Shown here: piece after piece, positions 924 through 23,105 of the stretch
Layout: each line of letters begins with the position of its first letter
Position numbering within the stretch: position 1 is the stretch's first letter
Program-made: the position numbers and the translations under genes
Source: a virus
Taxonomy: Duplodnaviria > Caudoviricetes
Virus record (IMG/VR): IMGVR_UViG_3300017965_000073
Location: 1 to 24,586 of that record
Length of the DNA: 24,586 nt
Reading direction: 5' to 3' (one strand)
Notes under the pieces: model-generated
The model's database searches: none
Seen by the model: the letters and a program-made list of their open reading frames with translations, nothing else
Told to the model about the DNA's origin: nothing

Positions 924-1054
924 TGAAAGCGGTGCGTAGGTAGGAGTTACTTCCCTTTGGAGGACGTGGTCACGGGTTCGAATCCCGTCCGGCTTGCCGG
1001 TAGCTCAGTGGTTAGAGCGCGTACGTTACTTCAACCGCCTGGATCTCGCTTTCA
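924..1054 (+). ncRNA. yrlA: YrlA-type Y RNA with circularly permuted tRNA-like domain (module 3)
   Basis: TGAAAGCG/CGCTTTCA stem; T arm ACGGG-TTCGAAT-CCCGT (972-988) precedes a loop-closed acceptor-like stem CCGG-CTTG-CCGG (989-1000) and D arm TAGCTC-AGTGGTTA-GAGC (1001-1018); upstream of a Ro gene. Confidence 0.88.
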
Positions 1055-3004: not shown

Positions 3005-3143
3005 TTGTTCGCTGGTCCGGCCACCATTGCGGGAACCCGCCGGAGTAATCGTTGGCGATCGGTAGGTACAAGAATTGCGTCTCGAGTGTGTGCCACACGA
3101 AAGCGCATGAGTACCTAGGGCATTCGCAGGCCAGCAACACTAC
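3001..3143 (+). ncRNA. Putative structured intergenic RNA element of unknown family
   Basis: GTAG/CTAC, TGTT/AACA and GCTGGTC/GGCCAGC close the whole gap; nested TAGGTAC(3063)/GTACCTA(3111) stem and GCGG-GAAC-CCGC hairpin. Confidence 0.45.
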
Positions 3144-3160
3144 CAACGAAGGGAGCATGA

Positions 3161-4363
3161 GTGCCAGGCGAACTCTTCGATAGACCGGCGACCGCCGTTG
3201 AGGACAAAGGGGATCACGTGGTCCTCGAAGTCCACAACGGCGATCGTGTCACCTATCGAAGGTGCCGACGTAAGTTCATGTTCCAGTCGCGCCTACGTGA
3301 GAACCTCATTGCGATCTCAACCCCGCGGGGCCCGTTGTGGCTCGGGTCGGGGTTTCACTTTGCACTGGAGGACTTCCACGGACATAACAGATTCGGGGAC
3401 CCGCGTCGGGCTTTCGATGCCTACGTGGAGGCCCATCCTCCGGAGGAACTTCCCGAAGACGTAGACAAGTTGGTCGTTTTGGGCAACGGCATGCTTGAGT
3501 ACTACGTGGACTTGTGGCTTCCCCGACGCCAAGCGACTATGCCGCAGACGCTTTGGGTGAACGGGGAGCCACAGGTCGAAGTTCACGTCCAGATTCCCGT
3601 TACCGAACTCATCCAGCCCTGGCTTCTGGACATCCTTCAGGAGAAGCACGGTAAGCGGGTCGAAGTCGTCATCTTCCAGACCTTCGACAAGATCGAGATC
3701 GACCAGGAAGGGCGGATCTGGGGCGTCGACTACAAGACCGCAAAGCAGATGACCCCCGTCAACGATCTGCAGCGGCTTCCGCAGGGCAAGCAGTACTACT
3801 GGGGCGGGCGCTGGTTCTACGGGGATGCGTTCGAAGGGATGACGTGGCAACAACACCTGAAGTCAGTTCCTGAACCCCCTGAACTCCTGAAGTCCGGAGA
3901 CTTCTCAGTCAACAAGTCCCAACACACCACATACTCAATGTACCGAAAGGCCCTGATAGACCAGTTCGGTAAGGTCCCGAAGGGTTACGTCGAGATCCTG
4001 AACATCCTTGCGTCCCGAGAGAACGATGAGGGCGATAGGTACATCAGGCGCGATACGCTTCGGTGGAGTCCGATGCAGGGGTTTTCGGAAGAGGAAGCCC
4101 TTACAGCCGAGCTGCATGAGATGCTCGACCCGAATCTTCCGATCTACCCGAACCCCACAAGGGACTGTAACTGGGATTGCCCATTCTCCCCGATCTCACA
4201 GGCGATGGACGACGGGTCAGACTTCGATTACCTGCTCGAGACCGAGTTCATGCGGTACCAAGGTTACCGAGATGACTGGCGAGCCGCAATTGCATGGCCC
4301 GCAGGAACCGAACCTTCGTTGTCCCCAACCTCGGTTTCGTCTGCCCATGGAGTGCCCGCGTAA
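3161..4363 (+). CDS. Cas4/RecB-like PD-(D/E)xK exonuclease
   Basis: N-terminal RRCRRKF, GSGFHFALE helix, catalytic FD...VDYKT, Q..QYY, C-terminal CNWDCPF. Confidence 0.85.
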   Translation: MPGELFDRPATAVEDKGDHVVLEVHNGDRVTYRRCRRKFMFQSRLRENLIAISTPRGPLWLGSGFHFALEDFHGHNRFGDPRRAFDAYVEAHPPEELPEDVDKLVVLGNGMLEYYVDLWLPRRQATMPQTLWVNGEPQVEVHVQIPVTELIQPWLLDILQEKHGKRVEVVIFQTFDKIEIDQEGRIWGVDYKTAKQMTPVNDLQRLPQGKQYYWGGRWFYGDAFEGMTWQQHLKSVPEPPELLKSGDFSVNKSQHTTYSMYRKALIDQFGKVPKGYVEILNILASRENDEGDRYIRRDTLRWSPMQGFSEEEALTAELHEMLDPNLPIYPNPTRDCNWDCPFSPISQAMDDGSDFDYLLETEFMRYQGYRDDWRAAIAWPAGTEPSLSPTSVSSAHGVPA

Positions 4364-4755
4364 TGGGTCTTTCGCCCTACTCGTTTGAGGCCCACGAAGG
4401 GGTTAGTGGGGCCACCGATATCGGCATTGGCGTCGTTCACGGTATGCTCCATGCAGTCACGGGTTCTCTGTGGGTGCAGATCCAACGCGAACGCCGCGAC
4501 GGTCCGAAGTGGTGTGAAGCCCTCCGTGGCGGCAGGCTTCGGACACCTCCTGTACGACTTATCCCCGACGACTTCTGCCACGTCTGCTTCCATCCCGGTC
4601 ACTCAGAAGGTCCCTGTGCGGCAGAGGCAACGGAATACCGCGATCCCGCTATGGGGGGTAATCCGGATGGCCCTATCGTGCGGTGCGGCTGCATCGAATA
4701 CGTTGACCGCGAGGCGCGGAATAACATCCCGGTGGTGCTGACGAATGTCCCTTGA
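4363..4755 (+). CDS. Hypothetical protein with Cys/His cluster (CHVCFHPGH...C...CGC)
   Basis: ATG 4363 overlaps the TAA of the exonuclease (TAATG); in frame with ORF 4294..4755. Confidence 0.65.
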   Translation: MGLSPYSFEAHEGVSGATDIGIGVVHGMLHAVTGSLWVQIQRERRDGPKWCEALRGGRLRTPPVRLIPDDFCHVCFHPGHSEGPCAAEATEYRDPAMGGNPDGPIVRCGCIEYVDREARNNIPVVLTNVP

Positions 4756-5248
4756 GTCTCGCTTTTGGTCTAAGGTAGATATGAACGGCCCCATGGTCTC
4801 CGAGGAGCTCGGAAACTGTTGGGTTTGGAAGGGATCTCGTACCAGAAACGGGTACGGTCAGATCTTCGTCCGGCGAAACCCTGCAACAGGGAAACGCCTC
4901 GTTCGTGGTGCACACATCATCGCCATGGAGCTCGACGGTCAGTACGTCGAGAAGGGGATGGAGCCGGATCACATGTGCCGGAATCGGCTCTGTGTCCGGG
5001 TATCCCATCTCGAGCTCATTACCCACAAGGAAAACGCCCAACGGCGGACTCCGCCGAAGTGTAAGCGCGGTCATCCCTACGAGGGGAACTACGTGCTAAA
5101 CGGAGGTGGGAATAGAACCTGTAAGACCTGTAAGTACGAGCGGGAGCAGCGGCTCATCAAGAAGGCCGCAGCTCGCATCCGCCACGATCGCGCACTGCGG
5201 GCAGCCCTAGCGGCACCGACTCCGCAGGCGACAGGAGTACTGCACTAA
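4745..5248 (+). CDS. HNH homing endonuclease (HNH_3-like)
   Basis: RFWSKV...CWVWKG...GYG, AH, DHMCRNRLCV..HLE..THKEN, followed by a CKRGH...CKTC zinc finger. Confidence 0.9.
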   Translation: MSLESRFWSKVDMNGPMVSEELGNCWVWKGSRTRNGYGQIFVRRNPATGKRLVRGAHIIAMELDGQYVEKGMEPDHMCRNRLCVRVSHLELITHKENAQRRTPPKCKRGHPYEGNYVLNGGGNRTCKTCKYEREQRLIKKAAARIRHDRALRAALAAPTPQATGVLH

Positions 5249-6379
5249 ATGACCTTTCCAAGGCCGACGGCGTCTACGCCAGCGCCTTCGCGTGTCACAC
5301 AACCCGGTGTGGCTGCTACGGCAGCCAGCACAGCGGCACCCTCACCGATCTTCCGCATCACCCACCCAGCAATCGGCGGTACGGGACAGTACCTGAATCT
5401 CCTCGTCTACGGCGAGTACGGTTCGGGTAAGACAGTCCTCGCCGGTACAGCCGACGACGTGCCCGAGATGAAGAACGTCCTCTACATCGATGCGGAGGCG
5501 GGTAAGACTGCCCTCACCGATCGTCCGAACCTGGACGTCGTGACCATCAACACGTTCAAGCAGCTGGCACGGGTCTACGAGTTCCTCCGCCTTCACTGTC
5601 GCCTGCGCGACGACGGCTCTCCTGAGGCCCTGAGGCGGATGGCCGAGATCGAGATGCAGCTGAAGGGGCTTGAAGCCCCGCCCGAGAAGCCGACCATCTA
5701 CAGGACGGTCGTTGTCGACTCGTTGACCGAAGTTCAGACGTATCTCATGTACCAGCTGATGGGCGTCGACCCGAACAAGGTCGCCCTGGATGCCGAACTC
5801 ACAAGCCCTGAATGGGGCGAGTGGCGGCAGTCCAGCGACACCATTCAGCTACTCGCCCGTCAGTTCCGAGACCTTCCGATGAACGTCATCATGGTCCTAT
5901 CGGAGCAGGAAGTTCAGGAGTCCGGCACCCGCATGGTGCGCAGGATCAACCTTCCGGGCAAGCTCGCATCCAGGATCCAAGGATTCTGGGACATGGTCGG
6001 TTATCTCCAGAAGGCCGTCATTCCAGGCGACCAGGGGACAACAGTTACGAGGTGGCGCCTATACCTTACGAAGGGGCAGAACTTCCAGGCGAAGCACCGC
6101 TTCCGCCGAATCGACGTTGACTTCGTCGAAGATCCGACTATCGGTAAGCTGCTTGGACTGGCCAAGCAGGAATGGGCGGCCGAAACCGCCGAAAGGACAT
6201 CTAACACCAATGCCTCAGCCTCCCCAGCAACTCCGCCGCAACCCAGCCCAGCGACCGCAGCCGCCCCAGCAGCAGTTCCAGGCCGCGCCGCCGCAGCAGG
6301 CAGCGCAGGACCAGGATCCGGACGAGCAGTCGTTCGGCCAGGAGCAGTACGCACAGGACGACCAATCGGGCGAGGATGA
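5249..6379 (+). CDS. Phage AAA-family ATPase (AAA_24/Sak4-like)
   Basis: Walker A YGEYGSGKT, IDAEAG, Walker B VVVDSLT; lies between the exonuclease and DUF669 as in phage recombination modules. Confidence 0.85.
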   Translation: MTFPRPTASTPAPSRVTQPGVAATAASTAAPSPIFRITHPAIGGTGQYLNLLVYGEYGSGKTVLAGTADDVPEMKNVLYIDAEAGKTALTDRPNLDVVTINTFKQLARVYEFLRLHCRLRDDGSPEALRRMAEIEMQLKGLEAPPEKPTIYRTVVVDSLTEVQTYLMYQLMGVDPNKVALDAELTSPEWGEWRQSSDTIQLLARQFRDLPMNVIMVLSEQEVQESGTRMVRRINLPGKLASRIQGFWDMVGYLQKAVIPGDQGTTVTRWRLYLTKGQNFQAKHRFRRIDVDFVEDPTIGKLLGLAKQEWAAETAERTSNTNASASPATPPQPSPATAAAPAAVPGRAAAAGSAGPGSGRAVVRPGAVRTGRPIGRG

Positions 6380-6821
6380 GCTGCCGGACGTCTTCAATCT
6401 CGCAGACGTCCCGGATCAGCCCGCCTTCGAGGCCATCCCGGCAGGGCGCTACAACGCGACCATCGACAGCGTCGAGTACGGCCGTTCGCAGTCGTCCGGC
6501 GACCCGATGCTCACGTTCTTCCTCCGTGTCCACGTCGAGGGGCAGGAGGGGACGCGTGACGTTCCGATGCGTCTGTACAACTCCTTCGGGGAGCGGTCGA
6601 TCAGTCGGACGAAGCGGCAGCTCGAGCAGCTCCTTCCCGGCCACGACTTCTCGAACTTCCAGCCGAACGAGGCAGATGGTCTGCTCGCTGGCGTCGAGGT
6701 GATCGCCCAGGTCCGGGTCCGGAGCAACCCGCCCAACCACCAGTACCCCGGGAAGCAGAACAACATCCAGGCTCTGAGCCTGCCGGCAGCCGGCGAAGGC
6801 CGGGACGGCTTCCTCAGCTAG
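6210..6821 (+). CDS. DUF669-like single-stranded DNA-binding protein with Gln-rich N-terminus
   Basis: FEAIPAGRYNATIDSVEYGRSQSSGDPML motif; SD GAAAGGA at 6191 before ATG 6210; overlaps the ATPase by 170 nt. Confidence 0.75.
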   Translation: MPQPPQQLRRNPAQRPQPPQQQFQAAPPQQAAQDQDPDEQSFGQEQYAQDDQSGEDELPDVFNLADVPDQPAFEAIPAGRYNATIDSVEYGRSQSSGDPMLTFFLRVHVEGQEGTRDVPMRLYNSFGERSISRTKRQLEQLLPGHDFSNFQPNEADGLLAGVEVIAQVRVRSNPPNHQYPGKQNNIQALSLPAAGEGRDGFLS

Positions 6822-6830
6822 TACCAGCAC

Positions 6831-6941
6831 GGGAGCGTAGCTCAGAGTAGAGCATCAACCGCAACGGCATCGGATGAGGTACCTCTAAGATGCCGCCGGA
6901 GACTGTTGAAGGTCGAGTGTTAACGCCACTCCGCTCCCGCC
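6831..6941 (+). ncRNA. tRNA-like RNA with a 45-nt insertion replacing the anticodon loop and degenerate D/T loops
   Basis: GGGAGCG/CGCTCCC acceptor stem, TA, GCTC/GAGC D stem, TCAAC/GTTGA anticodon stem, AGGTC variable loop, GAGTG/CACTC T stem; T loop TTAACGC, no D-loop GG, no encoded CCA. Confidence 0.75.
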
Positions 6942-6955
6942 TTACCACACAAACG

Positions 6956-7387
6956 GGTCGTAGCTCGGGTTACCGGATTTGGAGGTCTTCCTAGCCGATG
7001 TGGGACGCCTGGATAAGCCCCGCAAGAGGTGAAAGCCAGATTTACGGTCGTCCGAAGTCGGGCCCATCTACGGTCAGCAGGATGACACCCCTTTCATTGG
7101 GTGAACAGTGCCGAGGCCTGATCAACCTCAGCTGGCGGCTCCCGGTAACCAATCATGGGGATACTCCGGAGAGGAACCGACGTTTGTTAGTACCATTTAG
7201 TCCGACGTGTGTAGAGCACGTAGGACACAGGGTGGGTCCTGAATCTAGGGCACAGATCGGCGTTTGGATGGACAAGTGTCGGGGAAGTGTTCGTAGCAGG
7301 GCAGTCGGACCGCTCCCACGGTCCGTCATTCTGGGCAGTGGCGCTGACGATCGTTCGAGTTGGACGACCTCTCCGGAGTCCCCACCA
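6956..7387 (+). ncRNA. Large putative structured RNA(s) of unknown family ending in ACCA
   Basis: Long-range helices 6968-6976/7142-7150, 7157-7174/7368-7383 and 6956-6967/7356-7369; several local hairpins; no convincing coding signal. Confidence 0.55.
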
Positions 7388-7405
7388 TATTCGGGAGGAG
7401 AAGCA

Positions 7406-7675
7406 ATGAATCTCGTTCGGTTGGGTCACTACTACACACCTCAGGGTGAGGGCGAGAAGGGTTCATGCCAGACGGCGTTGGTGTGCGGCCACGACGAGTA
7501 CGGCGGAGCAGCTCCAGAGACCGTCAACGTTACGGTCTGGAACCACCGCGGCGAGCCGATCGGTAATCGAGAGAACGTCCCGGTGATGACGCTCGAGCAG
7601 ATCCACGCCCCCAAGCCAGGCGAGGAGAATCGCGCCAGCTATCACCTGTCGTCCGAATGCCCCTGGCACCGATAG
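7406..7675 (+). CDS. Hypothetical phage protein (89 aa)
   Basis: SD GGAGGAG at 7394-7400 before ATG 7406; 3' part of ORF 6998..7675. Confidence 0.75.
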   Translation: MNLVRLGHYYTPQGEGEKGSCQTALVCGHDEYGGAAPETVNVTVWNHRGEPIGNRENVPVMTLEQIHAPKPGEENRASYHLSSECPWHR

Positions 7676-7683
7676 GAGCCCCC

Positions 7684-8163
7684 ATGAAGATCGTCACCCT
7701 CCTCTCCGGCGGAATGGATTCCGCCACCTTGGCATACTGGGCTAAGTTCAGGGCCCCCGCAGATGGTAACGAAGCGGAGCTCATCTGCCTCTCGTTCGAT
7801 TACGGGCAGCGGCACATTAAGGAACTCGAGGCCGCAAAGAACATCGCGGGGATTCTCAACGCCACCCACGACGTCATCCGCCTTCGGGTCGACAACACCT
7901 TCATCGACAAGGGCTGGGAAGCCCAGCACATCTTCAAGGACGGTAAGTCCCCCAAGATTGCCCCACTCGGGTCGATTCTCGATTCGGCTCTGACTGGTCA
8001 CGGCGAGATCCCTGAAGGGCATTACGCCGACGAGTCGATGAAGGCAACCGTCGTCCCGAACCGTAACGCGATCATGCTCAGCATCGCATACGGCATCGCA
8101 GTGGCGAAGGGAGCAGACCTGGTCCTCTTCGGAGCGCACGCCGGAGACCATGCGATCTACCCT
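7684..8163 (+). CDS. queC: 7-cyano-7-deazaguanine synthase QueC, exon 1
   Basis: SGGMDS PP-loop, FDYGQRH, VPNRNAIMLS; breaks at YP of the conserved YPDCRPEF. Confidence 0.93.
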
Positions 8164-8758
8164 AAGCCACACTGAGTTGGGGTAGTAAAACCATTCCTGA
8201 TCAATTGGGAAAGGCCACTGTGCAACAGGCCAACCCACAGCAAGCAGAACTCGCCTACGCGGCCGGGTACTTTGATGGTGAGGGAGCCCTTCACCTTCAG
8301 GTGCAACGCAGAAACGGTCGTGTACACCAGAAGTGCCTCAACGTCACCGTGAACAGCTCGGACAGGGACACGTTGCTTTGGCTCGCGTCCCTGTTTGGTG
8401 GGAGCGTATTGCTCTACCAGAACCGTAGCCCATTGACACGGAAGCGGATGTACAACTGGAAACTGAGCGGCAGTGCCACTCGGAACTTCCTCGAACTCAT
8501 CCTGCCCCACTTGCGGTATAAGAAGGAATACGCAGCCTTCTGTATCGCGGCATGGGATTTCAGGACGGACACCGAGAGGTTTGAAGAGGCATGTCGAACA
8601 GGTAAGCAGCGGTGGGGACGTGCAGCTGCAGAGACTGAGTGGAATGGCGCCGGAAACGGTGATGCGACAGTCCGATCTGAAGGGACGGTTCAACCTTCAG
8701 AGGTAGCAGAAATGACTACCCGCTCATGATGGTCATCGTGAGTCTAAGTAACAGATTG
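8164..8758 (+). mobile_element. Group I self-splicing intron (595 nt) in queC
   Basis: Exon ends in U and intron ends in G; P1 CTACCCT/GGGGTAG(8179-8185); P3 CCATTCC(8191)/GGAATGG(8641); P7 GACTG(8633)/CAGTC(8668); P8 and P9 hairpins; removal restores YPDCRPEF in frame. Confidence 0.93.
8220..8729 (+). CDS. Intron-encoded single-motif LAGLIDADG homing endonuclease
   Basis: LAYAAGYFDGEG motif, ILPHLRYKKE; probable start GTG 8220 after GGAAAGG (alternative TTG 8205). Confidence 0.88.
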   Translation: MQQANPQQAELAYAAGYFDGEGALHLQVQRRNGRVHQKCLNVTVNSSDRDTLLWLASLFGGSVLLYQNRSPLTRKRMYNWKLSGSATRNFLELILPHLRYKKEYAAFCIAAWDFRTDTERFEEACRTGKQRWGRAAAETEWNGAGNGDATVRSEGTVQPSEVAEMTTRS

Positions 8759-9067
8759 GACTGCCGCCCGGAGTTCGTGATGGCCCTCGACTTCGCCCTC
8801 CGAACCGGAAACCAGTGGGACGCCACCACTAACGTCCCCGCGATTATGGGTCCGTTCCTCGACAAGACCAAGACAGACATTGCCCGACTCGGTTCGGAAC
8901 TGGATGTTCCCTTCTCCCTTACCTGGTCTTGCTACAAGGGGGGCGAGAACCACTGCGGAGTCTGCGGAACGTGCACGGAACGCATCGAAGCCTTCCGCGA
9001 CGCAGGCCTGGACGATCTGACCGTGTACGGCGAAGGCAAGGCAGTCGAGGCCGTATCCAGTGAGTAG
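8759..9067 (+). CDS. queC: QueC exon 2
   Basis: DCRPEF, KTDIARLG, TWSCY..CGVCGTC zinc site; spliced product 262 aa. Confidence 0.93.
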   Translation, partial: DCRPEFVMALDFALRTGNQWDATTNVPAIMGPFLDKTKTDIARLGSELDVPFSLTWSCYKGGENHCGVCGTCTERIEAFRDAGLDDLTVYGEGKAVEAVSSE

Positions 9068-9380
9068 CTGGTGTGTCACCCACTCTACCGACACGTGTAC
9101 TCACGGACGACACTACAACGATGCTGTTCCTGCCAAGCTCCCTCCTTCCGTTCGGCGGGACGAGGAGGAGGTCATCGTAGAGGTTACCTACAGGGGCGTA
9201 AGGTACACGGCCAAAGGGCAGCCGACGACTGTTACTGTCGACAACCGCACGCGTGAAACTACCGGACGATTCGACAGTTGGCGGTCGTATGAACTGACAG
9301 GTAAGAAGACGTTCACCCTCGTAATCGAGGACGCAGACATTGTCGTCGAAACCCAGCTACCAAAAAGGATCGAGGCGTGA
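9060..9380 (+). CDS. Hypothetical protein
   Basis: ORF overlapping the queC stop and the next start (GTGA). Confidence 0.6.
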   Translation: MSSWCVTHSTDTCTHGRHYNDAVPAKLPPSVRRDEEEVIVEVTYRGVRYTAKGQPTTVTVDNRTRETTGRFDSWRSYELTGKKTFTLVIEDADIVVETQLPKRIEA

Positions 9381-9880
9381 CGACAACAAACCGGCCCTCT
9401 GGTATCTGCGCGGATTCCCTTACGCAGATCCAGGCCGACTGCCACCGCATCGCTCGGGAGCACGGGTGGTGGACGACACCTGAGGACAAGAGCGTCCCCG
9501 TCAAGCTCGCCCTGATCCATTCCGAGGTCAGCGAAGCCCTCGAGGAGTACCGCGACGCCCACCCTGCAGACGACCTCGCCAAGATCCGGTACGAGTTCAA
9601 GGCGACGGACAGGGTCCCGAAGGACGCCGTCATCCGCAAGGCGTTCGGTAAGATGTACGCACAGATCGGCGATGGTCCGTCATTCGAGTTCGACCAGACC
9701 ACCGCATACGATCTGGGCTACGATGTGAAGCCGATCGGGTTCGCGATCGAACTGGCCGATGCGATGATCCGCATTATGGACCTGGCAGGACACCTCGGTA
9801 TCGACCTGACTGCGGCCATTACCGAGAAGATGGCGTACAACGAAACACGGCCACTGCGTCACGGGGGAAAGACGATATGA
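9377..9880 (+). CDS. MazG-like nucleotide pyrophosphohydrolase
   Basis: LALIHSEVSEALEEYR ... ELADAMIRIMDL ... EKMAYNETR.HGGK. Confidence 0.85.
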   Translation: MTTTNRPSGICADSLTQIQADCHRIAREHGWWTTPEDKSVPVKLALIHSEVSEALEEYRDAHPADDLAKIRYEFKATDRVPKDAVIRKAFGKMYAQIGDGPSFEFDQTTAYDLGYDVKPIGFAIELADAMIRIMDLAGHLGIDLTAAITEKMAYNETRPLRHGGKTI

Positions 9881-10134
9881 GGGCAACGTTCGTAGTGGTC
9901 CTCGATACCGGTCAACGAGTCGTGTACGACGGTGAGATCGTCGGGTTCGATCTCCGTCAGCAGCATGAGGAGGCTGGGACACCACAGGCCCACGACGACT
10001 GGGCCCCGCGTCTCCCGACCGGCAAGTACAAGGTAACGTTCCTAACAACAGGCGAAACGCCGATGCCTGTAGTCATTCACGAAGACGCCTTCAAGCCACA
10101 GCCACTCCCGCTTCCCCAAGCCCAGGAGGTCTAA
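9877..10134 (+). CDS. Hypothetical protein
   Basis: ATGA overlap with the MazG-like stop. Confidence 0.6.
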   Translation: MRATFVVVLDTGQRVVYDGEIVGFDLRQQHEEAGTPQAHDDWAPRLPTGKYKVTFLTTGETPMPVVIHEDAFKPQPLPLPQAQEV

Positions 10135-10137
10135 GCA

Positions 10138-10512
10138 GTGTTCCGGGCACACGTCGAGGAAGAGTTCGAGGCGGCACACGCCAATGGGCCCGAGGGGCAC
10201 AAGTGCCGCACGATGCACGGCCACACGTGGTTGGCGGAGGTGGAGTTCGAGTACCCGGAAAGCATGCTTGACGAGAATGGGTGGGGACCGGACTTCGGGG
10301 CGATCAAGGCCATTATCAAGCCCCTCGACCACAACGAGCTGAACTCCCACTTCGCGGGACGGTTCCCACCGTCGGCCGAGAACCTCGCCAAGTGGCTGTG
10401 GAACGAAGCCGCATCAGTGGTCGGACTGACGAGAGGACGGGCGCAGAACTTGGTTGTGCGCATCCACGAAGGTGGTGGCAACTTCGTCGAGTACCGGGAC
10501 GAGATGCGATGA
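10138..10512 (+). CDS. queD: 6-carboxy-5,6,7,8-tetrahydropterin synthase QueD
   Basis: FEAAH..C..MHGHTW, DFG.IK, LDH..LN, PSAENLA; SD GGAGG. Confidence 0.93.
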   Translation: MFRAHVEEEFEAAHANGPEGHKCRTMHGHTWLAEVEFEYPESMLDENGWGPDFGAIKAIIKPLDHNELNSHFAGRFPPSAENLAKWLWNEAASVVGLTRGRAQNLVVRIHEGGGNFVEYRDEMR

Positions 10513-11327
10513 CTGAGGAATCGGTTGCGGTAACGGAGGAGCCACAAGTTAGTCCGCTCGGGCCGTCTCCTGAACGCCGACTCATGGTCATCGAGATATT
10601 CGGCCCGACGGTTCAGGGCGAGGGGGCACTCGCCGGAAGGATAACCCACTTCATTCGACTTGGCGCGTGCGATTACCGGTGCGGGTGGTGTGACTCGGAT
10701 CATGCGGTAATCCCGGCGAAGGTCCGTGAGAACGGGAAGCGGATGACCACGGGCGAGATCGTCGAGGCGCTCGCCAAACTCAAGGGCCGCCCCGAGTGGT
10801 TGACAATCTCTGGTGGGAATCCTGCCCTACAAGAGTGTGGCGAACTTGTCGAGGCCGCACACGCCCTGAACTTCAAGGTGGCGGTTGAGACTCAGGGCTC
10901 CGTGTGGAAGGACTGGCTTGCACAGGTCGATCAGCTGACCGTGTCACCGAAACCGCCGTCCTCAAACATGGATTCCAAGGAACATCGCCTTAACCTCGCG
11001 TCCTTCTTCGAGCGAGAACAACTCACCCTGGGGCGCCCAATAGGTGCTTCAACGTGTATCAAGGTTCCGGTCTTCGACGAGAAGGACTACGAGTGGGCAC
11101 GACACGTCCACCAGCGTTGGGCACGGTATCCGTTCTTCTTCAGCGTGGTCACTCGGATGGGTGGCCTTTACGGCGACTTCGACGGCGGAAAGGTGGATAC
11201 GAAGGATGACGTTATCAAGCGGTACCGGTGGCTCGTCGAACGGGCCGTCGAAGACCCCGACTTCGGAGACGTCGCCCTCTTCCCCCAGATCCACGTCCTC
11301 CTTTGGCAGCACGAAAGGCAACGGTGA
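10509..11327 (+). CDS. queE: 7-carboxy-7-deazaguanine synthase QueE (radical SAM)
   Basis: EIFGPTVQGEG, CDYRCGWCDS (CxxxCxxC), ISGGNP, VETQGS, SPKPPSS, PQIH; ATG 10509 overlaps the queD stop. Confidence 0.93.
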   Translation: MTEESVAVTEEPQVSPLGPSPERRLMVIEIFGPTVQGEGALAGRITHFIRLGACDYRCGWCDSDHAVIPAKVRENGKRMTTGEIVEALAKLKGRPEWLTISGGNPALQECGELVEAAHALNFKVAVETQGSVWKDWLAQVDQLTVSPKPPSSNMDSKEHRLNLASFFEREQLTLGRPIGASTCIKVPVFDEKDYEWARHVHQRWARYPFFFSVVTRMGGLYGDFDGGKVDTKDDVIKRYRWLVERAVEDPDFGDVALFPQIHVLLWQHERQR

Positions 11328-12018
11328 TGACGGAGGAGAAGCCGAAGAGGGTTCGGTCCCGAAAGAAGTCACCATCAACCTCCCCGACGGAGACGACTGG
11401 TTCGAACTCCTCGACCAGTCAACCGACGACCCCCAGGCAGACGTCGACGCGTCGATCGACAGGCGGCTCCGCGAAGTCCTCCGCCTTATCGGGGTCAACG
11501 CGAGCGGCGAAAACTTCGTCGACACCCCCGCCCGATTCCGCAAGCTCCTCCAGCACTACCGCCAAGGTAACCCCACCGACCTGGGCGCCATCCTCAAGGC
11601 CGGATTCGAAGAGGGATCCGGAGGAGACAAGGGTCTTGTTGTCCAGACGAACATCGCCTTCCGGGGCCTATGTGCTCACCATCTCCAGCCCTTCATCGGG
11701 AAGGCCGCCGTCGGGTACATTCCACGCAACCGTGTGGTCGGACTCTCAAAACTTACGCGTCTTGTTCAAGCCGCCGGAGTCCTTACTCCGTCACTTCAGG
11801 AGCACATTACAAACCTGGTGGTTGACACGCTCCAGGATACCCTTCAGCCAACAGCTTCCGGATGTATCACCGTGGCAACTCACGGTTGCATGTCTGCTCG
11901 GGGCGTACTTGCTCCGGAGACGGAGACGATCGTCTCAGCACTGAGGGGTGGGTTCCTGATGAACCCGATCGCGCGCCAGGAGTTCATGTCGGTATGGCAG
12001 ACGACGTACAGAAGGTAG
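11327..12018 (+). CDS. folE: GTP cyclohydrolase I FolE; coding frame lacks a nearby start, candidate -1 frameshift from ATG 11327 at CGA-AAG (11360-11365)
   Basis: DTPARF, LCAHHLQPF, VGLSKL, LQE and HGCM..RG motifs in the frame of ORF 11044..12018; the start coordinate is inferred. Confidence 0.85.
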
Positions 12019-12023
12019 CATCC

Positions 12024-12275
12024 ATGCCAACCCTGGATGAAACACCAGGTCTCTCAGACCATGACCCGCTAACGGGTATCGAGAAGTCCCTCATCGGAAA
12101 GGGACTTGTACCCCACCTGCGGTTCAGTAAGGGGCAATCCGATACGTACTGGGAGTATCCGCAACGTCCCGCTCCGGCAGCGGCCACGTACTGGGGAACA
12201 CTCCTAGTCATCGTCTCACTGATGTTCTTCTTCCTCGTGCTGCTGAGGGGGTGGCCATGGGCACCGACGGGGTAG
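12024..12275 (+). CDS. Small membrane protein
   Basis: ATG 12024 after the folE stop; C-terminal hydrophobic helix YWGTLLVIVSLMFFFLVLL. Confidence 0.6.
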   Translation: MPTLDETPGLSDHDPLTGIEKSLIGKGLVPHLRFSKGQSDTYWEYPQRPAPAAATYWGTLLVIVSLMFFFLVLLRGWPWAPTG

Positions 12276-12532
12276 TTCTGAACCGGCAGAACCGACAGAA
12301 GCGCATCGACAACTTCATCACCTACCTCCAGAGTTCCAAGAGTGCTGAACGTCGGGAAGTCGGTCGCCTGGCCCGTATCGGCCAGGAAGCAGAAGAGATG
12401 ACAGCCCGACAAGCTACGGTGTCATCGCAACGACACGGGTTCGAACAGGCAGCGACGTTCTTCCTAGGGGAGCCGACCATTGAGTCCGAGATGGAAGCAG
12501 GACAAGAGGACCGCAAGCAAACGGCCCCATAA
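12257..12532 (+). CDS. Hypothetical protein
   Basis: ORF 12251..12532 with SD-like GAGGGGG upstream. Confidence 0.6.
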   Translation: MGTDGVVLNRQNRQKRIDNFITYLQSSKSAERREVGRLARIGQEAEEMTARQATVSSQRHGFEQAATFFLGEPTIESEMEAGQEDRKQTAP

Positions 12533-12619
12533 GGCCGCTGCGCGCGGACGAACTCACCCATGGGTCCTCGCCGTTAAGGCGCGAGACACCGCAGTCCGGA
12601 AGAGGAAGGCAGAGAAGCA

Positions 12620-12880
12620 ATGGCAGACCTACCGCGCTTCACACAAGCAGACCGGGCAGGCGAGCTCCTCCACGCCGATGCGGGTGCTCGCACGTTTCGC
12701 AAGCGCAGTCGGATCCTTGCGGTCCGGGTCGACCACGCGTTCGAAGTCGAGACCGACCGCGGAGTAATGGAAGCGGCGGCGGGTGATTGGCTCGTCACCA
12801 ATCATCCGGACGATGATCCCGGCTCTGATGTCTGGTCGATTAGCAACGACCGGATGCAAGCAACGTACGAAGAGGAATAG
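12620..12880 (+). CDS. Hypothetical phage protein (VET..G.MEA..GDWLV family)
   Basis: Recurring small phage protein motif FRK...VETDRGVMEAAAGDWLV...TYE; purine-rich SD. Confidence 0.7.
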   Translation: MADLPRFTQADRAGELLHADAGARTFRKRSRILAVRVDHAFEVETDRGVMEAAAGDWLVTNHPDDDPGSDVWSISNDRMQATYEEE

Positions 12881-12890
12881 GGAGGATACA

Positions 12891-13301
12891 GTGACAGAAC
12901 AGTCATACGTCAGCCGGTTCGTCCCGGTCGACCCGGATGAGATCCCGAACATCCGGGAGGCTCGTCGAGGCCGGGTGAGTTACCCGCTCCTGAAGGGCTT
13001 CCTGGAGTCGATGCTCCCGATTGCTCGTCTCGACCGAACGGGGATCAGCAGGACCTCGTACTCGCTGAGCATGACGCTCGGCCTGTACATCAAGAACCAC
13101 GAGCTCCCGATCAAGGTGTGCACCCGGAAGGGGGAGATCTACCTCGCCCGGACGGACGTGGACGATGAAGGCAACATCATCGGCGACTCGTCGGGCAATC
13201 TCCCCGATGTGCCGGATGATGACCCGTCCGATGTGACGGAGCTCGACTCGGCTGAGGTCGAGCGTCGGTTCGCTGAGGAGGCCGTTCAGGTCACGAAGTG
13301 A
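12891..13301 (+). CDS. Hypothetical protein with acidic C-terminus
   Basis: SD GGAGG at 12881 before GTG 12891. Confidence 0.75.
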   Translation: MTEQSYVSRFVPVDPDEIPNIREARRGRVSYPLLKGFLESMLPIARLDRTGISRTSYSLSMTLGLYIKNHELPIKVCTRKGEIYLARTDVDDEGNIIGDSSGNLPDVPDDDPSDVTELDSAEVERRFAEEAVQVTK

Positions 13302-13339
13302 AAGTCCTCGTCGTCTGCTCCCGTCGGTTCAATGGCTAA
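13298..13339 (+). pseudogene. 13-codon orphaned 5' end of the DJ-1/PfpI gene (MKVLVVCSRRFNG*)
   Basis: 11/13 aa identical to the N-terminus starting at 13723; coupled to the upstream stop (GTGA) and overlapping the endonuclease ATG. Confidence 0.8.
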
Positions 13340-13757
13340 GGGCATCTCCCTCCTCGAGGTTGCATGGGCGGCCAGGTTCTTTGACGGCGAGGGCCATATA
13401 CGGTTCAAGCCGCGTCCGAATCTCGGGCTGAAGTTGATTGTCGCGGTAGGTGGCGGGCATGATCCGGAGCTTCTGCTTAGATTCCAGACGGCGATCGGTA
13501 ATGTAGGACATATTCACGGTCCGTATAACCACAAGAGGGGGAAGCCGTACTACGCACTAGAGGTAACAGTCGCAAAGGATGTAATCGCCTCTATCGAACT
13601 CCTTGCGCCGTACCTAGGTACGGTAAAGCGAACACAGGCACAGGCAGCTATCGACATGTACTTCTCCGCTGGCGGAGGGGTTGGGAGTGGTCGATGGGGC
13701 TTACGGAAGGGGGTGATACCCAGTGAAGATCCTCGTGGTCTGTTCCCGCCGCTATAA
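13332..13757 (+). CDS. Free-standing single-motif LAGLIDADG endonuclease
   Basis: VAWAARFFDGEG, LAPYLGTVKRTQA; the usual Gly before FFDGEG is Arg. Confidence 0.82.
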   Translation: MAKGISLLEVAWAARFFDGEGHIRFKPRPNLGLKLIVAVGGGHDPELLLRFQTAIGNVGHIHGPYNHKRGKPYYALEVTVAKDVIASIELLAPYLGTVKRTQAQAAIDMYFSAGGGVGSGRWGLRKGVIPSEDPRGLFPPL

Positions 13758-14379
13758 CGGACATGAGTTAATCACGGCTCTCGGCATCGTCGTTAAGGCC
13801 GGTTTGGAGTTCGAGGTCGTCTCCTCAGGTACCAGGCTCGTAGATGAGGTGACCAATAAGGCCAACAAGATCCGGCGTACGATCGACGACGTAGACCCCG
13901 CGGAGTTCTCAGACACGTTCAAGGGCCTGATGATCGTGTCAGGGAATCCGCAGGACACCGAGAAGTTCTGGGTTAACCCCAAAGTCCTGAAGTTGGTCGA
14001 AGAGGCCGATAATCAGGAGCTTCCCATTGCAGCCATCTGTGCAGCAGTGCCGACGATCCGATACGCCGCAAAGGGCAAGAGGGTATCGTTCTACCCACTA
14101 GTCCGAGCTGCCCAACTCCTAACGGAAGCAGGAGCCATCCTGACAACCCTTTCGTTCAACGTGGACGGTAGGATCGTAACAGGAGAACACCAGATGGCAA
14201 CAGGGATGTGGGCAACTGCATTCTCTGACCTGGTGAACGGTGTTCCTGTTAGGACCCCACAACTCATCGATTCCAAGTGGGCGCCAAAGGGGAAAGAGCG
14301 TCGACCTATTGCCGCCGTAGAGCGCCTTAAGCCCCTCCATCTACGTAAGGTCTCACGCGACGGAAAACCCCTCAAGTGA
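13723..14379 (+). CDS. DJ-1/PfpI (class I glutamine amidotransferase-like) protein
   Basis: N-terminal beta strand with HEL Glu, LMIVSG, nucleophile elbow IAAICAA, VDGRIVTG. Confidence 0.8.
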   Translation: MKILVVCSRRYNGHELITALGIVVKAGLEFEVVSSGTRLVDEVTNKANKIRRTIDDVDPAEFSDTFKGLMIVSGNPQDTEKFWVNPKVLKLVEEADNQELPIAAICAAVPTIRYAAKGKRVSFYPLVRAAQLLTEAGAILTTLSFNVDGRIVTGEHQMATGMWATAFSDLVNGVPVRTPQLIDSKWAPKGKERRPIAAVERLKPLHLRKVSRDGKPLK

Positions 14380-15038
14380 TCCCGACAGCCCGATTGATTG
14401 CCCTGACGCAGCCCGTCGAAGAGGCTGCTGACCTGGGGATCCACACTCCCCTTGACCTAATCGAGTTCGCCGGGCGCTGGGACTACGGTGAGACGTCGGT
14501 TGCCAAGATGACAGAGGGGAACGAGATCATCGGTAGGTGGCTGGATGCAGGCGAAGAGTCGATGGTGGAGATGGTCCATGCCACCTTCTTCATCACCTGC
14601 TCCCGTGTCGTCTCGCACGAACTGGTACGCCACCGTATCGCCTCATACCAGCAAGAGTCCCAGAGGTTCGTGTCTTACAAGGGTGCTGACACTGACGACC
14701 TGTTCTATGTTCCGGAAGGCAACGAGGCCACGTCCAAAGCGGCCTTTCTCTTCAGGGGGGCGTACGAGTCGATGGCCCTCCTTTACGAACAGCTTCTGGG
14801 TATGGGCGTCCCGAAGCAACTGGCCAGGTATGTCCTGCCAAACGCGACCAGGACCCGAATCATCGCCACCATGAACCTGCGGCAGTGGCGCCACGTTAAC
14901 TTGCTGCGGATGCATCCGTCGGCACAACCGGAGATGCAGATCATCGCCAAGCAGGTCTACGCAGCGTTGGACGCCAGGTTCCCGATCGTCTTCAACGACA
15001 TCCCAGAACGTATTGCCAAGGGACGGGAGGCCCGATAG
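14376..15038 (+). CDS. thyX: Flavin-dependent thymidylate synthase
   Basis: SRVVSHELVRHRIASYQQESQR, ARYVLPNA, NLRQWRH, AQPEM. Confidence 0.93.
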   Translation: MIPTARLIALTQPVEEAADLGIHTPLDLIEFAGRWDYGETSVAKMTEGNEIIGRWLDAGEESMVEMVHATFFITCSRVVSHELVRHRIASYQQESQRFVSYKGADTDDLFYVPEGNEATSKAAFLFRGAYESMALLYEQLLGMGVPKQLARYVLPNATRTRIIATMNLRQWRHVNLLRMHPSAQPEMQIIAKQVYAALDARFPIVFNDIPERIAKGREAR

Positions 15039-15039
15039 C

Positions 15040-15681
15040 ATGCCGTCAGAGATGTACCTTCAACTGCTCCAGGATGCTGCCGATCTGCACAAGCGTAAGT
15101 CGGCTGGTTATGTTGGGCAGACGAATCCGGACCCGTGGGCGAACTTCCGGGAAAGCGAACGGATCGGCGTTCCGGCATGGCAGGGTGCCCTCATCCGGAT
15201 GGGGGATAAGTACCAGCGCATTCTGACCCTCGCGAAGGACGCCTCGAATGATCAGGTCGGAGAGTCAATCCAGGACACTCTCCTCGACCTTTCGGCATAT
15301 GCCCTGATTGTGCTGTGCCTTCTTCGAGGCGACGGTGTCGCCCCTTCCGACCGCGAACTGGCATTGACTGCGATGCAGTCACTCCTCAAGCGGCTCGAGT
15401 ACGACGGGCTGCTCACTGCCATCAACACAGCGGAGGCCGAGATCCTGATAGACAGGGCGCTTACCTCACCTGTAGTTCAGTGTGCGATGTCCGCTCCGCA
15501 CGCACCTCATGGGAACGTCGGTCTCCAACGAGGCGATTGCCCCGGGATTTCGGTAGCGGAAGGGCCTGGTCCGTTCAGGACAGTTCTGCCTCTCCAGGCC
15601 GAAGTGTCGCCGGAAACGATGGCGCGCGAGCAGGCCCGTCGCGGCCAAGTTGCCGGCGAAGAAACTGCAGCAGCCATCTGA
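15040..15681 (+). CDS. Nucleotide-modification-associated (Nmad1/DUF1599-like) alpha-helical protein
   Basis: KRKSAGY..DPWANF ... IRMGDKYQRI ... ESIQDTLLDLSAYALI. Confidence 0.7.
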   Translation: MPSEMYLQLLQDAADLHKRKSAGYVGQTNPDPWANFRESERIGVPAWQGALIRMGDKYQRILTLAKDASNDQVGESIQDTLLDLSAYALIVLCLLRGDGVAPSDRELALTAMQSLLKRLEYDGLLTAINTAEAEILIDRALTSPVVQCAMSAPHAPHGNVGLQRGDCPGISVAEGPGPFRTVLPLQAEVSPETMAREQARRGQVAGEETAAAI

Positions 15682-15974
15682 TGAAGACCGCTACGTACCC
15701 CCTACTCGCAGGAGGTCAGGTCGTTATCGAGTACGACGAGAAGGCCCCTTGTATTGGGTGCGGACTACCCGTAGTAGAAGCATCAATGGGGGGCACTGCC
15801 TTGTGTCCGTGGTGCGACACCGGAAAGAACCGAGACGGGACTCCCATCGAGTACCGTATGCGAGAAGCTACCGTAGACGAGTTGGCAGCAGGTAAGGGCA
15901 GCGTCGTCTTCGACAATGCCTATAAAGCAACGATCGAGGAGTACGCGGCCGCGCTTGCGGGCTTGCCTTCCTAA
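15681..15974 (+). CDS. Small zinc-ribbon protein
   Basis: ATG overlaps the upstream TGA; CIGC...CPWC. Confidence 0.7.
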   Translation: MKTATYPLLAGGQVVIEYDEKAPCIGCGLPVVEASMGGTALCPWCDTGKNRDGTPIEYRMREATVDELAAGKGSVVFDNAYKATIEEYAAALAGLPS

Positions 15975-15991
15975 GGGATCTGTGTTATAAT
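15963..15991 (+). promoter_or_regulatory. Sigma70-type promoter with extended -10
   Basis: TTGCCT (15963-15968), 17-nt spacer, TGn-TATAAT (15986-15991); ATG follows at 15998. Confidence 0.8.
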
Positions 15992-15997
15992 ATAGTC

Positions 15998-16234
15998 ATG
16001 GTAGAACAACAGCAGGACGAACCAAGACCGCTTGAGAGTTACGGGTACAAGGCGGAGCCGTGGCTCCTGGATAAGGAAGTAATCGCCCGTGCCGAGGAGG
16101 AGCACAGTAAGTGCGAAGCCCGGTGGTTACGTCGAGGGTTGAAGAACCCGCGGTTGCACAAGAAGACCATCTCCCATCCGATCGATGCGCATCTACCTCC
16201 GGATCTGAAGTATAGGCGGAAGCACTTCCGATGA
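15998..16234 (+). CDS. Hypothetical protein, probably leaderless
   Basis: ATG 6 nt after the -10 box, no SD; ATGA coupling to the next gene. Confidence 0.65.
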   Translation: MVEQQQDEPRPLESYGYKAEPWLLDKEVIARAEEEHSKCEARWLRRGLKNPRLHKKTISHPIDAHLPPDLKYRRKHFR

Positions 16235-16455
16235 AAGTCCGAATTGTGGTCGACGACCGGGTTAACTGGGCCCGGAATAATCGGGCAGAGCCGGATCCGG
16301 TGCTGCCGAACACGACGATCAGTGACTGGCAGGGACCGCTCCCGCAGAGGGGAGATCCGTTTGATTACCGTGGGGAGTCGCTTTCGGTGCAGAGGGTCTT
16401 GTGGGAGCTGGGTGAAGGGGCCGTTACCCCCCAAGTCGTGCTTCGTCTCCGATGA
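16231..16455 (+). CDS. Hypothetical protein
   Basis: ATGA overlaps at both ends. Confidence 0.65.
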   Translation: MKVRIVVDDRVNWARNNRAEPDPVLPNTTISDWQGPLPQRGDPFDYRGESLSVQRVLWELGEGAVTPQVVLRLR

Positions 16456-17093
16456 GCCTCAAGGACCTGAAGAACGGACCTATTTCGGACTCGTACAGCC
16501 CGCCGAATCTTACTCCCATCCGACCCTTCGGTGATCCGTGGAAGCGGGTTCCGGAGGGGACGATCTACCTGTTCAGCATGTCGCAGTCGGTCGACATGTA
16601 CCACTGGCAGTCATTGAAGGACCCCTCCGATTTCCGAGAGCATATCCTGAAGCACCTGGAGCAAGTGTTCTCAGAGACGTTCACCCGGACGGCGCTGTCG
16701 GCAGAGGCCGCACCTCTGCACCCGATGATTACCAGTCCCGTAACTCGTTCGGAATTCGATAGCGTCAGGCATGCATCGCGCCGTACAGGGCACGAAAGCT
16801 ACTCCTATATGCCGTCGATGCCGTCTGGTCCTGACCGTGAGCGGGCTGCATACAACCTGGCCCAGTCCCGCGGAGCCCCGATGCGGGTGTTCGTGATGGA
16901 AGCCAAGGTCTTTGTCCCCGCTACTATTAACCCAGTACAGGTCAGTACAGCTGCCGGGGTTCTCGAGGGCATTGTTGTCCCTAGAGACGCTTACACCGCC
17001 CCTGATAGGATCTACGACGAGTATTCGAGGATGCCGTACCCAGAGGACTACTGGGACTTCAAGGGTAGTGGAGACACTGATGACGTCAGGTAA
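16452..17093 (+). CDS. Hypothetical protein
   Basis: 213-aa ORF coupled to its neighbours. Confidence 0.7.
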   Translation: MSLKDLKNGPISDSYSPPNLTPIRPFGDPWKRVPEGTIYLFSMSQSVDMYHWQSLKDPSDFREHILKHLEQVFSETFTRTALSAEAAPLHPMITSPVTRSEFDSVRHASRRTGHESYSYMPSMPSGPDRERAAYNLAQSRGAPMRVFVMEAKVFVPATINPVQVSTAAGVLEGIVVPRDAYTAPDRIYDEYSRMPYPEDYWDFKGSGDTDDVR

Positions 17094-17916
17094 GTTTGCT
17101 CCTGTTGCGAACCTTCCCGTTTATGAGATGCTCGCGGAGTCAGGGGATCTCGGGTCCTACCATCTCCTCATTGCCTCTGAGGTGCTTAAGGCCCCAAAGG
17201 CATGGGGGGCCTTTTGGACTCGACGTTCGTTGATCGATGGGGAGCCAGTGTTCACGATCATGGATAATGCCCTGATCGAACTTGGGTACCCGTTGGAGTC
17301 CACACAACTCGTGGCAGCTGCTGCCGCAGTTATGGCGTCGTGTATTGTTCTTCCTGACGTCCTCGGGGATGCCAAGGAAACGATGCAGCTTGCGGGCAAG
17401 GCGCTGGACGATGCGGTTCTTCGGGGATCAGGGTTCCCTTTGATGGGTGTGGTTCAGGGGACAACGCTTCTTGAGGTTGACACGACCGTTCGGTTCTACA
17501 TGAACGCCGGTGTCGAGTACCTCTCGGTTCCTCGGGTGATGACGGATATCTTTGGGTCTCGGGTCGAACTTACAAAGAGGGTTTGGGATTGGGCTTACAA
17601 GCCTATCCATCTTTTGGGGTTCTCCAACGACCTTCATGACGACATGGTTGCAGCGGTCCAAGATGGGGTTATGGGGATTGACTCCGCAGTTCCCCTCTGG
17701 GCCGGAATGGAAGATCACCGCCTCGACGAGATCACGGCGATGTCCAAGCGACCCAAGAACTACTGGGATCGCGTTCCGGTCACCGACAAGCAGTTCCTCG
17801 TCATGCTGGAGAACGTTCGGCTGACGCGGTCTCTGATCAACCAAGCCCGCATCAACCGCAAGAAGGCGACTCTCGAAACCCGGATGCAGGCCTCACGGCC
17901 TAAGGGTTCCAAGTAG
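17080..17916 (+). CDS. tRNA-guanine transglycosylase-like TIM-barrel protein, candidate DpdA-type DNA 7-deazaguanine insertase
   Basis: Motif order IMDNA..ELG, VLPDV, VVQG, IHLLG, GIDS matches the TGT/DpdA fold; same arm as folE/queDEC and next to the DNA polymerase. Confidence 0.65.
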   Translation: MTSGKFAPVANLPVYEMLAESGDLGSYHLLIASEVLKAPKAWGAFWTRRSLIDGEPVFTIMDNALIELGYPLESTQLVAAAAAVMASCIVLPDVLGDAKETMQLAGKALDDAVLRGSGFPLMGVVQGTTLLEVDTTVRFYMNAGVEYLSVPRVMTDIFGSRVELTKRVWDWAYKPIHLLGFSNDLHDDMVAAVQDGVMGIDSAVPLWAGMEDHRLDEITAMSKRPKNYWDRVPVTDKQFLVMLENVRLTRSLINQARINRKKATLETRMQASRPKGSK

Positions 17917-20453: not shown

Positions 20454-20848
20454 TGGCAGGGATTGAACGTGCTACGTCGGGAACAGGAGAGTCGGACGCC
20501 GCACCGAAGGGCATCGACTACACCCGGAGTAAGGCAGTCCAGAAGGTAAAGGGACTGCCGCGGAACAACAACGTCCGGATCCGGGTGTGTATCTACAAGT
20601 GCCGCTTCTGCCTGTCCTTCACAACAACAGGACTTACGTCGGCATGGGTACATACGATGATTCATGGTCCGTGGGAGTCGATGGGCTCACAGGCGCATGC
20701 CGAGATGAATGCGAAGCCCCCGCCTGCTCCTCGGGGGCGCCCACCTCTGTCCTCAGTTAGGTCTGCGGAACCAAACCGTTCTGGCCATCGAATCGGATCC
20801 CCTCAGCGCGTCGGCTCGAAGTTCCGTAATAACTCCAGCCGTGGATGA
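20453..20848 (+). CDS. Hypothetical protein with C2H2-like motif (CRFC...H...H)
   Basis: ATG overlaps the polymerase TAA. Confidence 0.5.
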   Translation: MAGIERATSGTGESDAAPKGIDYTRSKAVQKVKGLPRNNNVRIRVCIYKCRFCLSFTTTGLTSAWVHTMIHGPWESMGSQAHAEMNAKPPPAPRGRPPLSSVRSAEPNRSGHRIGSPQRVGSKFRNNSSRG

Positions 20849-21425: not shown

Positions 21426-21501
21426 GTGAAGTTCACGAGGTCTGGCGCCAGGAACATCTCAATGCCAAAGCTAAGTAAGAGCTTTGCGCATAGCGCTTTA
21501 G

Positions 21502-21966: not shown

Positions 21967-21984
21967 CCGTACTCCTCCGCTGCA

Positions 21985-23067: not shown

Positions 23068-23105
23068 GTCAACTCCTACCTAATTCATATACGGTGCGGA
23101 GAGGG

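Follow-up and report, generated by a model that had tools for sequence, protein, structure and literature searches.

Minus-one ribosomal frameshifting at the codon pair CGA-AAG has been described for cdd of Bacillus subtilis and for IS1222; the passages of PMC5009743 that deal with these sites give A_CGA_AAG in the former as incidental and G_CGA_AAG in the latter as productive. Wobble codons of the CGA type are said there to raise the level of shifting, and a passage on T. thermophilus describes slippage as dependent on there being just one tRNA-Lys, and an additional tRNA specific for AAG is expected to dissociate poorly. According to the relevant sections of PMC4066793, shift-prone tetramers need a strong 3' stimulator 4–10 nt downstream, and A_AAG in E. 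coli, placed behind a different 5' codon, was barely shifty alone; a strong pseudoknot raised it to 5.6% at most. "Savior" or compensatory frameshifting of indels is treated in its own part of PMC5009743. As for gene context, preQ0 clusters comprising folE-queD-queE-queC together with DpdA are known from phages 9g, CAjan and nt-1, on which the corresponding sections of PMC6884629 report.

The window, i.e. the whole stretch of DNA analysed, is a single virus record of 24,586 nt from an uncultured soil phage. As in 9g, CAjan and nt-1, as far as they are described in that source, its queC, queD, queE and folE genes are adjacent and lie near a DNA polymerase gene and a possible transglycosylase gene; unlike in these phages, queC carries an intron-like insert, the DpdA match is weak and the start of folE is irregular. 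At the queE-folE junction the window shares with cdd and IS1222, as presented in the passages cited above, a zero-frame CGA-AAG, an SD-like word upstream and a useful -1 product. It differs from these accounts in that the 5' base is C, the site lies 12 codons after the start and a shift would be the only route from that start to the enzyme, and further in that the site is unconserved, has no strong 3' structure and is followed by a zero frame that continues for about 190 codons. By analogy, the site would work like those of cdd and IS1222 only if slipping occurs. As in the savior cases outlined in that source, a low level of slipping could yield some product from a gene with an indel; the window instead offers an in-frame upstream start.

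The preQ0 gene cluster and the integrity of FolE

Besides a split queC, queD, queE and folE, the window encodes Ro60, a PD-(D/E)XK nuclease, an AAA_24 ATPase, DUF669, DJ-1/PfpI, thyX, a UDG-domain family A polymerase and tail-like genes, and related uncultured phage contigs show the same gene order. The 5' exon of queC (7684–8163, + strand; PF06508 positions 1–129, E 2.5e-27) ends in H-A-I-Y-P and the 3' exon (8759–9067, +; PF06508 positions 130–209, E 2.2e-20) starts with D-C-R-P, and QueC in relatives is contiguous. The queD gene (10138–10512, +) is recognized by PF01242 (E 9.9e-24), with TIGR03367 matching below its cut-off, and queE (10509–11327, +) matches TIGR03365 above its cut-off, at 241.7 bits. 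The folE region (11365–12018, +) comprises an acidic linker and an intact GTP cyclohydrolase I core, which begins at about 11460 (PF01227, PHROG 2197). The genes folE, queD, queE and queC are all found together, as in phage 7-deazaguanine clusters, and folE encodes the first enzyme of what is likely a DNA-modification pathway.

A conserved ORF at 17080–17916 (+), which is also present in relatives and directly precedes the polymerase gene, might encode a divergent transglycosylase of the DpdA type. It matches NF041059 only at E 0.009, far below the cut-off (14.9 vs 200 bits), a PDB search gave no match, and its sequence possibly represents a divergent transglycosylase subfamily. The family A DNA polymerase itself (17916–20453, +) carries an N-terminal domain of the uracil-DNA-glycosylase family. 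An integrase was found in none of five related records, only one of which is at least 90% complete.

The FolE core scores 144 bits with PF01227, against a cut-off of 27, and matches PHROG 2197, while the NCBIfam FolE models match it below their own cut-offs (e.g. 146.9 vs 162). Residues C115, H117, H118, H185 and C187 of the CxHH and HxC motifs are invariant in alignment A1, and we take the Cys, His and Cys of these motifs to be the zinc ligands. The window FolE deviates at three of the 62 columns that are 90% conserved across 34 homologs, the homologs themselves ranging from 0 to 13 deviations. Its distance to near relatives divided by their mutual distance is 1.25, and the corresponding ratios of seven other genes span 0.78–1.45; the long FolE branch in a quick tree (1.3) was accordingly rejected as a peculiarity of folE. 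To judge from these comparisons, the folE core is under purifying selection, and any inactivation of the gene would therefore be recent. The N-termini of FolE homologs vary widely in both length and sequence. Among the cultured-phage FolE matches listed, the closest share only 31–41% identity. In a set of distant phage FolE proteins (L035, L049, L050, L053, L056, L062, L063, L075, L077, L084 and L085) the N-terminus carries a further domain of about 110 aa, which shows the motifs GxPxGG and DDxxDSG and is presumably phosphoribosyltransferase-like.

The queE-folE junction in the window and in relatives

A preliminary description of the window had proposed that folE is expressed by a -1 frameshift at CGA-AAG that throttles the preQ0 pathway, and direct reading of the sequence confirms the elements on which it drew. 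The queE stop, TGA at 11325–11327, is overlapped by an ATG at 11327–11329 (TGATG), which is preceded by AAGG at 11315–11318 (whole element 11315–11329, +) and lies in the +1 frame relative to FolE. The frame of this ATG opens with MTEEKPKRVRSRKK and ends after 205 aa at 11944, and within it CGA (11360–11362) is followed by AAG (11363–11365); the FolE frame is -1 of that frame. C_CGA_AAG is the candidate -1 slip site (11360–11365, +), which is not conserved, and a GAGG at 11347–11350 (+), 9 nt before CGA and 12 nt before AAG, is a possible stimulator. Between the queE stop and the core, the FolE frame holds no ATG, GTG or TTG, and the only near-cognate codons are ATC 11374, ATC 11455 and AGG 11461. 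Upstream it stays open for 94 codons back into queE, a stretch that includes GTG 11044, GTG 11161, ATG 11206 and ACG 11311.

When SD strength is scored as pairing with a generic anti-SD, which may not be that of the host, the AAGG before ATG 11327 reaches -2.8 kcal/mol, and 20 of the 26 other scored starts have a stronger SD. In the window, 4 of 25 stops are followed by TG, and all four appear to be coupled starts (three had been assigned as starts, and the fourth shares the frame of the next ORF). ATG 11327 looks like a real or former start, and if it is one, the codon-usage scan places the switch of frame, by a slip or by the loss of one base, between 11330 and 11375 (+). The hexamer CGAAAG occurs seven times on the + strand of the window.

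For comparison, a folE match was found in 246 loci, with queE directly upstream in 81 of them, 68 of which are distinct, the window included. A canonical start is absent from the region between -20 of the stop and the core in 3 of those 68, namely the window, L086 and L052. In an extended set of 80 distinct queE ends, whose filters leave L052 outside, the window and L086 alone have no canonical start among the loci whose folE frame continues open through the stop. In the nearest relatives folE begins at a GTG inside the terminal Arg-Gly/Gly-Val codons of queE, 8–11 nt before the stop and in the queE+1 frame, and other relatives use TGATG or TAATG. The folE of the window likewise occupies the queE+1 frame, as in the five nearest lineages with DNA (L086, L001, L007, L002 and L010/11). 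The C-terminus of its QueE reads WQHERQR, as opposed to WGxxRG(V/F/H) in relatives (alignment A2 and junction tables), and the window is without the GTG of its nearest relatives because the end of queE has changed in this way.

The overlapping start appears to have been lost more than once in this phage group. In L086, the closest locus with DNA (61%), the usual GTG is gone through a synonymous Arg codon difference and there is no frame break; at 3127–3145 of this locus a CTG lies at +4, 11 nt after a GAGG. In L052, which also has no frame break, a CTG overlaps the stop (-4) and an ATG lies at -76. P0017, which is represented by protein only, has Ala where L086 has the changed GTG position, suggesting that the overlapping GTG was probably lost there too. 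L086 and P0017 might reflect either repeated use of non-standard starts or errors in contigs.

The preliminary description had named a shared frame break and hexamer in related phages as a check on its proposal, and this check goes against it: the break occurs in none of 68 other distinct queE-folE junctions, nor does CGAAAG follow the queE stop in any of them. Of 69 distinct junctions, 2 contain the hexamer, those of the window and of L266, and in each of them its first occurrence lies at -16 inside queE. These counts are to be read with the provisos that identity to the nearest relatives is only about 60%, at which a young signal would be missed, and that the scans for relatives covered 9 of 64 metagenome parts and 13 of 64 genome parts, so that closer relatives may exist. 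A region search and a local BLAST of the junction revealed no close relatives with the same N-terminal extension, a degenerate junction pattern had no matches in viral contigs, and the P0003 and P0011 scans recovered known or distant loci only.

Routes to the FolE protein

Our tentative preference is for a reading in which FolE is made without recoding from an ordinary in-frame ATG at 11206, 122 nt inside queE; the weights that we attach to this and the other readings are judgements rather than computed posteriors. The ATG stands 10 nt after the SD-like AAAGGTG at 11189–11195 (whole element 11189–11208, +), and its frame is open to the core. Its SD energy of -7.2 kcal/mol, compared with -2.8 for ATG 11327, ranks among the top 20 of 262 ATGs, with the qualification that it is sensitive to settings and rose above -6.5 with a shorter pairing window. 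Initiation at this very codon had been named in the preliminary description as an outcome that would speak against recoding, and on these features it is the most likely start of FolE. FolE from 11206 would be 270 aa long, with a queE overlap of 122 nt and a long, probably disordered N-terminal extension. ATG 11327 would then probably once have been the coupled start of folE, and a single base would have been lost in the dispensable first ~45 nt of the gene during a local remodelling of the queE-folE junction. Such a loss might have been tolerated because the upstream in-frame start, and perhaps also host FolE, covered for it.

Synonymous recodings of the queE tail (n=1500) contain such an ATG site in 10.8% of cases, and some NTG with an SD of -6.5 or lower in 30%; the support that this test lends to 11206 is modest. 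The same phage group might offer a precedent for a long +1 overlap, as in 9 of 24 distinct loci, the window among them, DUF669 (SSB-like) appears to start in the +1 frame within the AAA gene, with 119–170 nt of overlap. Both overlaps are +1 and both starts fall inside the upstream gene, the N-terminal extension of DUF669 being of low complexity; whereas the AAA_24/DUF669 overlap recurs in these nine loci and occupies a non-conserved tail, the proposed folE start is confined to this genome and falls in a conserved part of queE. The AAA_24/DUF669 overlap lies at 6210–6379 in the window and was also noted in L001, L007, L009, L010, L014, L015, L017 and L086. In the seven nearest loci (two of them near-identical) the +1 frame of the queE tail has no stops against 7.6 expected, a pattern noticed post hoc with a stop model that over-predicts stops in folE and most window genes; the same frame in 23 more distant loci has 50 stops against 49.3 expected.

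Several observations count against 11206. No start was found at its position in any relative examined. The TGATG looks active, as do all four stop+TG cases, and an active start there would waste ribosomes on the 205-aa frame, which has no early stop. Furthermore P0003, the likely sister of the window FolE, has a rare basic head like that of the ATG-11327 frame. A GTG at 11161–11163 (+) forms a second upstream candidate in the FolE frame (SD -6.7), which is a by-product of the Met-Gly-Gly codons of queE. A conserved upstream start near -150 was considered and rejected, the SD+NTG being a by-product of the same codons and being found also where the frame is closed, in the three closest control loci.

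Initiation at ATG 11206 would above all call for caution in annotation, as gene callers will miss or mis-start this folE, and the ESM Atlas already holds the off-frame ORF that begins at ATG 11327. This Ser/Thr-rich ORF of 205 aa (11327–11944, +) has no Pfam or PHROG match, and its Atlas entry has a pLDDT of 0.47 and no usable look-alike. Under the window model an open frame of this length has a P of about 0.003; in relatives, open stretches of 130–154 codons occur in this frame of folE, and stretches of 157–166 codons are found in other genes of the window. A functional product was rejected given the missing family, the low pLDDT and the commonness of long open frames, and the ORF is probably a by-product. 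The frame to which unshifted ribosomes had been assigned in the preliminary description exists, and its product is unremarkable.

The foremost competing reading, which we consider unlikely, is that ribosomes re-initiate at ATG 11327 and a fraction slips -1 at CGA-AAG, with tRNA-Lys moving from AAG to AAA, to give a 230-aa FolE. Roughly two thirds of the weight that we give to slipping goes to an incidental rescue of a one-base loss and one third to a programmed throttle under selection. The passages of PMC5009743 on cdd and IS1222 name this very hexamer, and it falls inside the ~45-nt zone where the switch must occur; as in both, CGA_AAG stands in a translated frame and the -1 frame leads to an intact product, here the FolE core. 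Elsewhere in the window an in-frame CGA AAG is found at 1 of 4477 codons. The TGATG provides coupling, GAGG stands at stimulatory spacing, and GC3 before the site is 10/12 in the ATG frame versus 6/12 in the FolE frame. The FolE of P0003 (sister position with SH-aLRT 88, subject to a long-branch warning) starts with a basic head, after which KEV stands 53 residues ahead of TPxR as against 54 in the window, and a basic head is seen in only 4 of 120 homologs. However, the alignment of the P0003 head is not significant (shuffle p 0.43), and wherever one frame reads as acidic, the next is bound to read as basic. The basic head, the TGATG and the codon bias support ATG 11327 as a former start and do not separate a slip from a deletion.

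Against slipping stands the conservation record, in that the break is seen in 0/68 other junctions and the hexamer elsewhere only at -16 inside the queE of one locus. The site is a bare tetramer or hexamer rather than a heptamer, and it differs from the cdd/IS1222 type in its 3' stimulator as well as in conservation. The 3' fold, computed without pseudoknots, has -8.0 kcal/mol (z -0.44), weaker than the median of -9.8, and 68% of 666 background windows are as stable. No strong hairpin was found 4–10 nt downstream of CGA-AAG, and a stronger one about 30 nt downstream of the slip site occupies the same strand. The GAGG singled out in the preliminary description is present, yet the stimulation that it implies is no better than background, since an SD-like word lies 6–17 nt upstream at 1004 of 4592 codon positions (21.9%). 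An identical C_CGA_AAG stands in frame in the PD-(D/E)XK gene, which is unbroken; it is one of 16 in-frame NNA_AAG sites in unbroken window genes. Lysine codons in the phage are AAG:AAA = 183:11, a preference that suggests a host tRNA-Lys(CUU), which would be expected to dissociate poorly from AAG. Finally, the codon-usage scan gives the CGA-AAG position about 3%, with about 98% lying on switch points up to 11374; as a means of placing the switch the scan was set aside as uninformative, there being 0.8 bits between the frames and p 0.06–0.08 for both readings.

If ribosomes do slip at CGA-AAG, this would be incidental leakage and not regulation. The equation of the hexamer with the cdd/IS1222 shift site holds insofar as it is named for both, and falls short insofar as the passages of PMC5009743 concerned call the cdd case incidental. 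A lineage-specific, selected -1 shift at a bare CGA-AAG 12 codons into the frame, serving as the sole route to FolE, throttling preQ0 and limiting the drain on GTP, is very improbable. The throttle proposed in the preliminary description fits poorly with the break being absent from all 68 other junctions, the lack of strong 3' structure and the better SD of the in-frame ATG 11206. If frameshifting did occur, it would mean that functional CGA-AAG shifting, as in IS1222, also serves a phage metabolic gene, and it would place a control point on 7-deazaguanine modification. Among the papers listed in a search mostly of literature outside subscription, there was no case of recoding-dependent FolE or of another such metabolic enzyme in a phage DNA-modification pathway.

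It is rather unlikely that a recent single-base deletion simply inactivated folE and that the folate FolE of the host supplies the pterin precursor; the sharing of FolE and host supply are treated for phage 7-deazaguanine pathways in sections of PMC6884629. The TGATG start, the codon bias and the sister-like basic head are all compatible with a broken gene, as is a single dominant genotype at a word depth of about 6x. Against it, the break lies within the opening ~45 nt of a gene of ~690 nt, the part where rescue is easiest, folE has no other lesion, and no other frame break is seen in window genes relative to 14 relatives.

Initiation at a near-cognate codon in the FolE frame (ACG 11311, ATC 11374 or ATC 11455) is quite improbable. 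Consistent with such a start, L086 and L052 have no canonical start near the stop and have CTG at +4 and -4, respectively, and the shortest homologs begin at the position of ATC 11455. However, an SD is absent at all three codons (0 to -0.9 kcal/mol), such codons reach 0.01–2% of AUG in E. coli in the data cited from bioRxiv 10.1101/063800, and ATG 11327 would be met first by re-initiating ribosomes.

The chance that the break is an artefact of library or assembly is slighter still. A Logan contig of run X1 covers 8776–11565 with 0 differences and 0 gaps at a depth of 6.4, and eight long pieces from X1 contigs spanning 4191–23900 likewise have 0 differences and 0 gaps. X1 is a 2018 soil metagenome run and probably the source of the window, so that these matches test the assembly rather than the library and do not amount to independent reads. 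Run X2, from another study, yielded identical 151-nt pieces at 10806–10956 and 11097–11247 and nothing over 11313–11413. The low depth, and the representation of the site in one run that may be the source, leave some room for an artefact; the identity of a separately assembled contig over the site and an A run only three long speak against it, and an assembly slip is unlikely.

Finally, a +1 shift in the queE tail giving a QueE-FolE fusion is extremely improbable: the FolE frame is open 57–94 codons into queE in the nearest loci, but the conserved PQxH-L-W end of QueE would be lost, no +1 signal was identified and a weak search recovered no longer, fused homolog.

The queC insert, other endonuclease genes and a Y-RNA-like region

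The queC gene is split by an insert at 8164–8758 (+), between ...IYP and DCRP, which is absent from the queC of six near relatives and may be worth more than the folE finding. An intron of group I that carries an endonuclease ORF is the probable identity: T is the last base of the exon and lies within a predicted P1 hairpin with G-U at the splice site, G is the last base of the insert, and the 3' part of the insert folds (z -2.5). No Rfam match was obtained for the insert. Its endonuclease-like ORF of 174 aa (8205–8729, PHROG 5046) may be LAGLIDADG-like by a reading of the motif.

A region at 926–1023 (+) upstream of the Ro60/TROVE gene (1304–3004) contains a match to a YrlA Y-RNA-like element at 964–1023 (E 2e-6, below the gathering score); ARAGORN calls this Y-RNA-like region beside the Ro60 gene a tRNA-Gln. 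Y RNAs of the YrlA type were reportedly described in an earlier study.

A second PHROG 5046 endonuclease-like ORF in the window (13332–13757, +) is apparently free-standing and overlaps the start of the DJ-1/PfpI gene. In L092 (~1913–2340) a free-standing endonuclease ORF, 31% identical to the ORF of the window intron, lies between queE and folE; its end (RGHVRER) is similar to the C-terminus of QueE and provides folE with its GTG.
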